Shown here piece after piece: positions 55,178-56,461 of a stretch of 64,000 nt of DNA; the first letter of the stretch is position 1; each line of letters opens with the position of its first letter. The notes below the pieces were generated by a model that saw only the letters and a list, made by a program, of their open reading frames with translations, ran no database searches and was not told where the DNA came from. The stretch is from the NCBI RefSeq assembly GCF_057098645.1, contig NZ_CM169472.1. One strand, given 5' to 3'. The translations under genes were made by a program, and so were the position numbers.

Positions 55178-56461
55178 ATGGCTCTTAACACACCACAAAT
55201 TACGCCGACAAAAAAGATAACAGTGAGGGCAATCGGCGAGGAACTGCCGCGTGGTGATTACCAACGTTGCCCGCAATGTGACATGCTGTTTAGCCTGCCC
55301 GAGATAAATTCTCATCAAAGTGCCTATTGTCCGCGCTGTCAGGCAAAAATTCGTGACGGGCGCGACTGGTCGCTAACGCGCCTGGCGGCAATGGCTTTCA
55401 CCATGCTGTTGCTGATGCCTTTTGCCTGGGGCGAACCGCTGTTGCATATCTGGCTGTTAGGTATTCGTATCGACGCCAATGTCATGCAAGGCATCTGGCA
55501 AATGACCAAACAGGGCGATGCGATAACGGGGTCGATGGTCTTTTTCTGCGTTATTGGTGCCCCCCTCATTCTGGTGACCTCCATGGCTTATTTATGGTTT
55601 GGTAACCGACTGGGAATGAATCTACGCCCGGTACTGCTGATGCTTGAGCGACTTAAAGAGTGGGTAATGCTCGATATCTACCTGGTCGGCATTGGCGTTG
55701 CTTCTATAAAGGTACAGGATTATGCCCATATCCAGGCGGGTGTCGGCTTGTTCTCTTTTGTGGCGTTGGTGATTTTGACGACGGTGACGTTGTCACATCT
55801 TAATGTCGAGGAGCTGTGGGAGCGATTTTATCCGCAGCGCCCCGCTACGCGTAGGGACGAGAAACTTCGTGTCTGTCTTGGGTGCCATTTTACCGGCTAT
55901 CCTGATCAGCGTGGTCGCTGCCCGCGTTGCCATATTCCGCTACGCCTGCGTCGCCGTCATAGTTTGCAAAAATGCTGGGCGGCGCTGTTAGCGTCAATCG
56001 TTTTGTTGTTACCTGCCAACCTGTTGCCTATTTCTATCATTTATCTGAATGGTAGCCGGCAGGAAGATACGATTCTTTCCGGGATTATGTCGCTGGCAAG
56101 TAGCAACATTGCCGTTGCGGGAATCGTGTTTATCGCCAGTATTCTGGTACCGTTTACTAAAGTGATCGTCATGTTCACTTTACTGTTGAGCATTCATTTT
56201 AAATGCCAGCAAGGTTTACGCACACGCATTCTGTTACTGCGAATGGTGACCTGGATTGGTCGCTGGTCGATGCTCGACCTGTTTGTCATATCTTTAACCA
56301 TGTCGCTGATTAATCGCGATCAGATCCTCGCTTTTACTATGGGACCGGCTGCGTTTTATTTCGGCGCAGCGGTAATTTTGACTATTCTTGCTGTGGAATG
56401 GCTGGACAGCCGCTTACTTTGGGATGCACATGAGTCAGGAAACGCCCGCTTCGACGACTGA
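55178..56461 (+). CDS. yebS: PqiA-family inner-membrane protein YebS (LetA)
   Basis: 427-aa ORF with zinc-ribbon-like CxxC pairs and multiple TM segments. Confidence 0.85.

Follow-up and report, generated by a model that had tools for sequence, protein, structure and literature searches.

The letA and letB genes of E. coli K-12 (yebS-yebT, b1833-b1834) encode the LetAB lipid transporter, whose solved complex contains six LetB per one LetA (PMC13017536). The 2026 Nature paper on LetA states that the two genes "overlap by 32 bp" (PMC13017536). LetA residues 419-427 and LetB residues 1-13 are unresolved by cryo-EM, so the overlap codes for two disordered tails, and the LetB TM helix comprises residues 14-45 (PMC13017536). 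A LetB-only plasmid suffices for LetB expression, and the authors of the structure paper removed the overlap deliberately for mutagenesis: a refactored, non-overlapping plasmid, pBEL2071, was the functional wild-type reference in their LetA mutational scan (PMC13017536). Plasmid complementation in that study works through leaky over-expression and does not imply that the overlap has no effect when expression is native.

The pqiA-pqiB-pqiC operon is organized like letAB, with a PqiA-family membrane gene directly followed by a multi-MCE gene, and PqiA ends like LetA with a D-P-R-L-x-W-D motif and then a variable acidic tail. PqiB has three MCE domains as against seven in LetB and, unlike letA and letB, pqiA and pqiB do not overlap: they lie 4 nt apart, and the end of pqiA contains a strong SD (GAGGAG). 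The next pair, pqiB and pqiC, shares a classical 4-nt ATGA overlap. Classical coupled pairs with a spacing of -4 or -1 (ATGA, TGATG) resemble letAB in that they are co-oriented, belong to one operon, encode subunits of one complex and have a start inside the upstream gene, but their spacing is -4, -1 or -8 as against -32, their subunit ratio is 1:1 as against 6:1, and the letB start, unlike theirs, initiates independently in vitro. The coat-lysis pair of MS2 (-50 nt) shares with letAB a long out-of-frame overlap and a start well upstream of the upstream stop (PMC12548453). Initiation at the MS2 lysis start essentially requires coat translation or termination, whereas the isolated letB start is active in vitro and has no masking structure predicted over it. 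Coupling falls with longer overlap and is absent at -25 nt in synthetic constructs (reviewed in PMC12548453).

Here, we analyzed the corresponding junction in a 64,000-nt stretch of contig NZ_CM169472.1 (assembly GCF_057098645.1), referred to below as the window; the features at issue are listed in Table 1. The 4-kb region around the two genes is a 100% match to E. coli O145 strain RM9872 (NZ_CP028379.1), which places the window in an O145-type strain. RefSeq annotates the same overlap on that identical chromosome (yebS 3079-4362 and yebT 4331-6964 in locus L001), and the same 32-nt overlap is annotated in K-12 MG1655, where the junction sequence is identical. The locus is the same as K-12 letA-letB, which bears out the lipid-transport role put forward in the original prediction, a reading made from the DNA letters alone.

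LetA is a PqiA-family inner-membrane protein, with two Pfam PqiA matches (PF04403, E=9e-82) and a match to TIGR00155, the PqiA/YebS family (E=1e-211, 703 bits against a cut-off of 260). LetB carries seven Pfam MlaD/MCE stretches (E=2e-83) and an N-terminal TM helix, visible in the translation as a hydrophobic segment after a basic KNKRR stretch; the LetB class is defined by six to eight MCE domains and an N-terminal TM anchor, and the protein has the same length as K-12 LetB. Two PqiA modules upstream and a multi-MCE protein with a TM anchor downstream are what characterizes a LetAB/PqiAB-type operon, and the identification of the pair as a PqiA-like membrane protein and a long multi-MCE periplasmic protein was correct (Pfam, TIGR00155). 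RefSeq features around the match show the enterobacterial letAB context, prc-proQ-msrC on one side of letA-letB and rsmF on the other, and prc-proQ synteny is also kept at three distant letAB loci (L083, L085 and L088). The 4-kb yebST region was found in 5424 of 5426 complete E. coli genomes. The other two genomes gave no match, matching genomes carry at most two copies, and in one place overall the region lies on a plasmid.

Table 1. Features of the letA-letB junction, in window positions.
Feature	Position	Strand	Description	Source
yebS/letA CDS	55178-56461	+	427 aa, stop TGA 56459-56461	ORF list, Pfam, TIGR00155, RefSeq
yebT/letB CDS	56430-59063	+	877 aa, stop 59061-59063	translation, Pfam, RefSeq, K-12 annotation
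letA/letB overlap	56430-56461	+	32 nt; LetA residues 418-427 in frame 0, LetB residues 1-11 in frame +1	
letB start ATG	56430-56432	+	LetA His418 (CAT) positions 2-3 and Glu419 (GAG) position 1	
Upstream in-frame ATG	56424-56426	+	38-nt overlap if used; probably no start	
Weak SD-like GGGA	56421-56424	+	5 nt before the letB ATG; from LetA Trp415-Asp416 codons TGG GAT	
Near-invariant nucleotide block	56378-56465	+	-52 to +35 of the letB ATG; 88 nt	
Small conserved hairpin	56447-56465	+	7-bp stem, 5-nt loop; letA stop in the 3' arm	

The yebS frame ends in TGG GAT GCA CAT GAG TCA GGA AAC GCC CGC TTC GAC GAC TGA, and the ORF list shows the letB frame open in +1 from 56388 to 59063. The 32-nt overlap is seen alike in the sequence, the ORF list, RefSeq and K-12, and the yebT ATG does lie inside the yebS 3' end, as had been noted. 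Since it is both published and annotated (RefSeq, EcoCyc-style annotation, PMC13017536), the overlap is already known. It is not an annotation artefact, given how the ATG that defines it behaves across species.

We fetched 80 Enterobacteriaceae letAB loci with a LetA identity of 75-97% and aligned 78 of them, setting one aside (L063) for a frameshift in letB. All 79 junctions keep ATG 56430: the 78 aligned loci and L063, whose junction is intact. The T of this codon is the wobble base of LetA His418 (CAT or CAC) and synonymous in LetA, so that the LetA protein does not explain the invariance. The ATG also occupies the same homologous position at the distant loci L083, L085 and L088, where LetA identity has dropped to 50, 44 and 36%: at such syntenic loci letB begins 9 nt past the codon for Trp in the LetA motif D-S-R-L-[LI]-W-[DK]. 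As side observations, the frameshift in L063 (Kluyvera ascorbata ATCC 33433) lies in a C run around codon 62 of letB, about 190 nt past the letA stop, and reflects either a pseudogene or an error in assembly; truncated LetB ORFs of 726 and 539 aa occur at two other loci.

A second in-frame ATG, which the original prediction did not mention, lies 6 nt upstream at 56424. Nineteen of the 78 aligned loci, among them the E. coli species representative (L003), have ACG or ATA instead, and no SD-like sequence precedes this codon. Downstream, the letB frame contains no ATG, GTG or TTG between 56433 and 56522; the next candidate, ATG 56523, is Met32, inside the TM helix, and the codon itself varies among the aligned loci. 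A true letB start located downstream and outside letA, the outcome that would have dissolved the overlap, was thus not found, as no canonical start occurs before the TM-helix Met32. Variation follows the same boundary. The few sites that vary upstream of 56430 are silent for LetA but would change residues radically in the letB frame (Trp to Leu or Ser, for instance), which indicates that this stretch is not coding in the letB frame; downstream, variation sits mainly on letB wobble positions, and within the overlap the differences between species are mostly at the wobble bases of LetB codons, equivalent to first positions of LetA codons. In published INRI-seq data a peak was called at the annotated yebT start in 5/5 replicates, with no alternative start listed for yebS or yebT, and a start at 56424 would have put the 3' edge of the ribosome outside the 12-18 nt detection window of that method (PMC9825163). 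The annotated letB start, ATG 56430 and not the adjacent ATG 56424, can be trusted.

Two further candidates for coding sequence around the start were rejected. An N-terminal extension of LetB from TTG 56388 is contradicted by three loci in which the codon is TTT and by upstream variable sites that are radical in its frame. A third-frame mini-ORF (56398-56433) that would form an ATGA with the letB start is interrupted by an in-frame TAG at 56407-56409 in 19/78 species (C to T at 56407).

While the start is fixed, the distance from it to the letA stop is not. Among LetAB lineages that use the same ATG the overlap ranges from 11 to 56 nt (11, 32, 38, 44 and 56 nt), and at L083, L085 and L088 it measures 56, 38 and 11 nt, respectively, because the LetA tail differs in length. 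The position of the letA stop is kept in 74/78 Enterobacteriaceae; in the other four (L015, L035, L036 and L064, from Citrobacter spp. and Superficieibacter electus) the TGA has become GGA, a change that is synonymous in letB, so that LetA is 431 aa long, the stop is shifted by 12 nt and the overlap is 44 nt, with the letB ATG unchanged. The spacing at more distant LetA/PqiA-like loci includes 8-nt overlaps, one overlap of 17 or 29 nt, and intergenic gaps of 25 and 55 nt. A comparison with pqiAB and homologous loci had been proposed as a check on coupling; it shows a spacing that is not conserved, from the 4-nt gap of pqiAB to the overlaps of 11-56 nt in relatives.

No other stretch of the 3.9-kb operon is as conserved across the 78 Enterobacteriaceae species as the near-invariant block of Table 1, which begins some 50 nt before the letB ATG and extends 4 nt beyond the letA stop. 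Conservation reaches at least 95% at 10 of 15 degenerate letA third positions between -52 and -1, but at only 5 of 369 in the remainder of letA (binomial P ~6e-16). Third-position entropy averages 1.18 bits in letA and 1.22 in letB, and is 0.1-0.35 in the last ~30 letA codons, which hold all 25 of the lowest 10-codon entropy windows of letA; the lowest window elsewhere in letB has 0.50. Within E. coli, the 101-nt junction is at least 99% identical in 5319 of 5424 genomes, a level that the 4-kb region as a whole reaches in only 44.

The block contains the SD-like GGGA, a pyrimidine-rich stretch and the small hairpin. The GGGA, which forms an anti-SD duplex of -4.0 kcal/mol, is invariant in 78/78 loci, and TGGGAT or TGGAAA is kept at this site in the distant loci. 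An SD is essentially lacking at the letA start (-1.5 kcal/mol as against -4.0 for letB). The sequence upstream of the letA start, TTTGGCACGTCATG, resembles that upstream of letB, TTTGGGATGCACATG (55160-55180 and 56415-56432), which may be coincidence. A scan for sigma-70 promoters found no promoter-like site in the conserved block, its three hits elsewhere being at chance level.

We considered whether this freeze of synonymous sites marks an exceptional new element. At a control junction, proQ to prc in the same set of species, synonymous variation is suppressed in a similar but weaker way (0.26 bits over the last ten codons), and the idea was dropped; given this effect, we take the block for the footprint, strong but ordinary, of an internal start region. 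The block is accordingly best interpreted, from its sequence and conservation, as an embedded translation-initiation region of letB. Editing the last ~25 codons of letA, even silently, amounts to editing this conserved start region and may alter LetB levels. At the control junction itself, the suppressed variation affects the last 10-15 codons of proQ (53756-53800, minus strand) before the prc start, which follows a 19-nt gap and has a strong SD, ACGGAGG.

How strongly the two starts are used can be gauged from INRI-seq, in which every gene is represented by its own short, denatured RNA (-30 to +153) in a purified system; the letB RNA carries no letA start (PMC9825163). The yebT start yielded 29.8-69.1 CPM from an RNA present at 58.7 CPM, and the yebS start 6.3-7.9 CPM from an RNA present at 541 CPM (PMC9825163). 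Dividing the two tables, we obtain a per-RNA initiation in vitro that is ~60-fold higher for letB than for letA. Since the isolated letB RNA initiates without a letA start, letB initiates on its own in vitro, on a short RNA rather than the native mRNA; this speaks against a dependence on letA translation. In vivo, Ribo-RET gave no signal for yebS or yebT (PMC9825163), and a proteome study detected YebT and not YebS (PMC6544118); entries for the two genes are absent from the supplements of Mori 2021, an acid-stress Ribo-seq study and the TRAINSPOTTER N-terminomics study.

These observations bear on the proposal that the overlap reflects translational coupling and that coupled expression fixes the stoichiometry of the two proteins. 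Neither part is supported: the isolated letB start is active in vitro, no masking structure is predicted and the spacing varies; and the complex holds six LetB to one LetA, with a ~60-fold higher start signal per RNA for letB. Compared with what is known of reinitiation, the spacing is -32 nt and not -4, -1, -8 or a short gap; the products depart from near-equimolarity (6:1 complex, INRI-seq, detection of YebT only in the proteome); and no structure sequestering the downstream SD or start was found at the junction (z = +0.55 and +0.75, see below). With a complex of 6:1 and a letB start that works alone in vitro, the overlap should not be read as 1:1 coupling. It appears ordinary, and probably does not fix the ratio of the proteins.

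We favor, with a probability of about 0.7, the view that this is the native E. coli letA-letB junction, in which a LetA tail of no fixed length runs across a fixed internal letB start, the overlap being mainly a by-product. LetB starts at ATG 56430, 9 nt after the codon of the last conserved LetA tryptophan (D-S-R-L-L-W-D), and the same Trp-Asp codons (UGG GAU) supply the weak SD-like GGGA. LetA runs ten codons further as a disordered, poorly constrained cytoplasmic tail, producing the 32-nt overlap, while the overlap and the ~50 nt of letA that precede the ATG make up a conserved and largely unstructured initiation region. Free ribosomes probably load de novo at letB, and do so faster than at the SD-less letA start; such higher loading would suit a complex of six LetB per LetA. 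The overlap would then result mainly from a fixed internal start and a drifting LetA tail, rather than serve as a device for equimolar coupling, and ribosomes translating letA may contribute slightly, either because they hold the region open or because they occasionally reinitiate. The overlap matters little beyond good annotation.

Among the alternatives, it is unlikely that ribosomes ending letA at UGA 56459-56461 backtrack by 32 nt to start again at AUG 56430, and equally so that LetB output is thereby tied to LetA output. Such termination-reinitiation fits with genes that are co-oriented, overlap and offer only a weak SD, as well as with a letA stop whose position, together with the hairpin holding it, is conserved in 74/78 Enterobacteriaceae, so that termination there could matter; back-scanning over ~50 nt has been described for MS2 coat-lysis (PMC12548453). 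Yet reinitiation could at most give 1:1 and cannot alone supply six LetB per LetA, the isolated letB start is strong without any letA translation in vitro (PMC9825163), and synthetic constructs have lost coupling by a spacing shorter than that seen here (-25 nt; PMC12548453). The distance between stop and start also changes from 11 to 56 nt with the same ATG, four species having moved the stop by 12 nt, and the refactored operon without overlap is functional (PMC13017536).

A second form of coupling, in which the full-length mRNA masks the letB start until ribosomes reaching the end of letA open it, also seems improbable. A conserved structure might in principle account for the near-invariant 88-nt block, and the local accessibility of the letB start in its 4-kb context is only at the 78th percentile, but folds of the junction are no more stable than those of shuffled sequences (z = +0.55 for 56380-56480 and +0.75 for 56410-56470). 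The only consistent hairpins, at 56399-56412 and 56447-56465, leave out both the SD and the AUG. A long-range pairing present in the MFE fold, GACU 56380-83 with AGUC 56433-36, was discarded, as it is broken by a G to A change in seven species with no compensation; there is no match to an Rfam family at the junction even at E<=1, and initiation in vitro is strong with 30 nt of upstream sequence (PMC9825163). Another candidate hairpin, at 56348-56370, was rejected because its pairs are often broken, with no consistent covariation.

The hairpin at the letA stop deserves separate mention, since with the conserved block it raises a third, quite remote alternative: a dedicated cis element that sets a 6:1 ratio of LetB to LetA synthesis or is the target of a regulator. 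In its first variant, the hairpin would hold post-termination ribosomes or send them back to the AUG, adding to a strong de novo loading; in its second, the block would be recognized by a trans-acting regulator (a sRNA or RNA chaperone), allowing LetB to be tuned independently of LetA. The hairpin is predicted at -8.1 kcal/mol with a modest z of -1.94 and lies 17-35 nt downstream of the letB AUG. Its stem pairs are almost invariant, a G-U pair being replaced by A-U in 11 species, its variable sites (56454 and 56455) fall in the loop, and its 3' end coincides with the end of the conserved block. It is not evident in the distant loci.

Weakest of all is the notion that the annotated letB start is wrong and that ATG 56424, TTG 56388, ATT 56469 or ATG 56523 is the real one: the first two occur in frame in this strain, ATT 56469, just past the end of letA, would leave the TM helix intact, and overlaps of at least 30 nt are uncommon, more than 80% of overlapping pairs sharing less than 30 bp (PMC12548453), yet the substitutions at ATG 56424 (19/78 species) and TTG 56388 (three), the switch from a non-coding pattern of variation to letB wobble phase at 56430, the variable Met32 position within the TM helix and the INRI-seq data, with no alternative yebT start (PMC9825163), make this scarcely credible.

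Elsewhere in the window, Rfam matches point to other RNA features. A pair of antisense sRNAs occupies both strands at 62020-62164, SraC/RyeA on the plus strand (175 bits) and SdsR/RyeB on the minus strand (114 bits). On the minus strand, 46072-46532 matches a cspA-type thermoregulator 5' region (137 bits), and 26937-27022 matches the sRNA sroD (108 bits).
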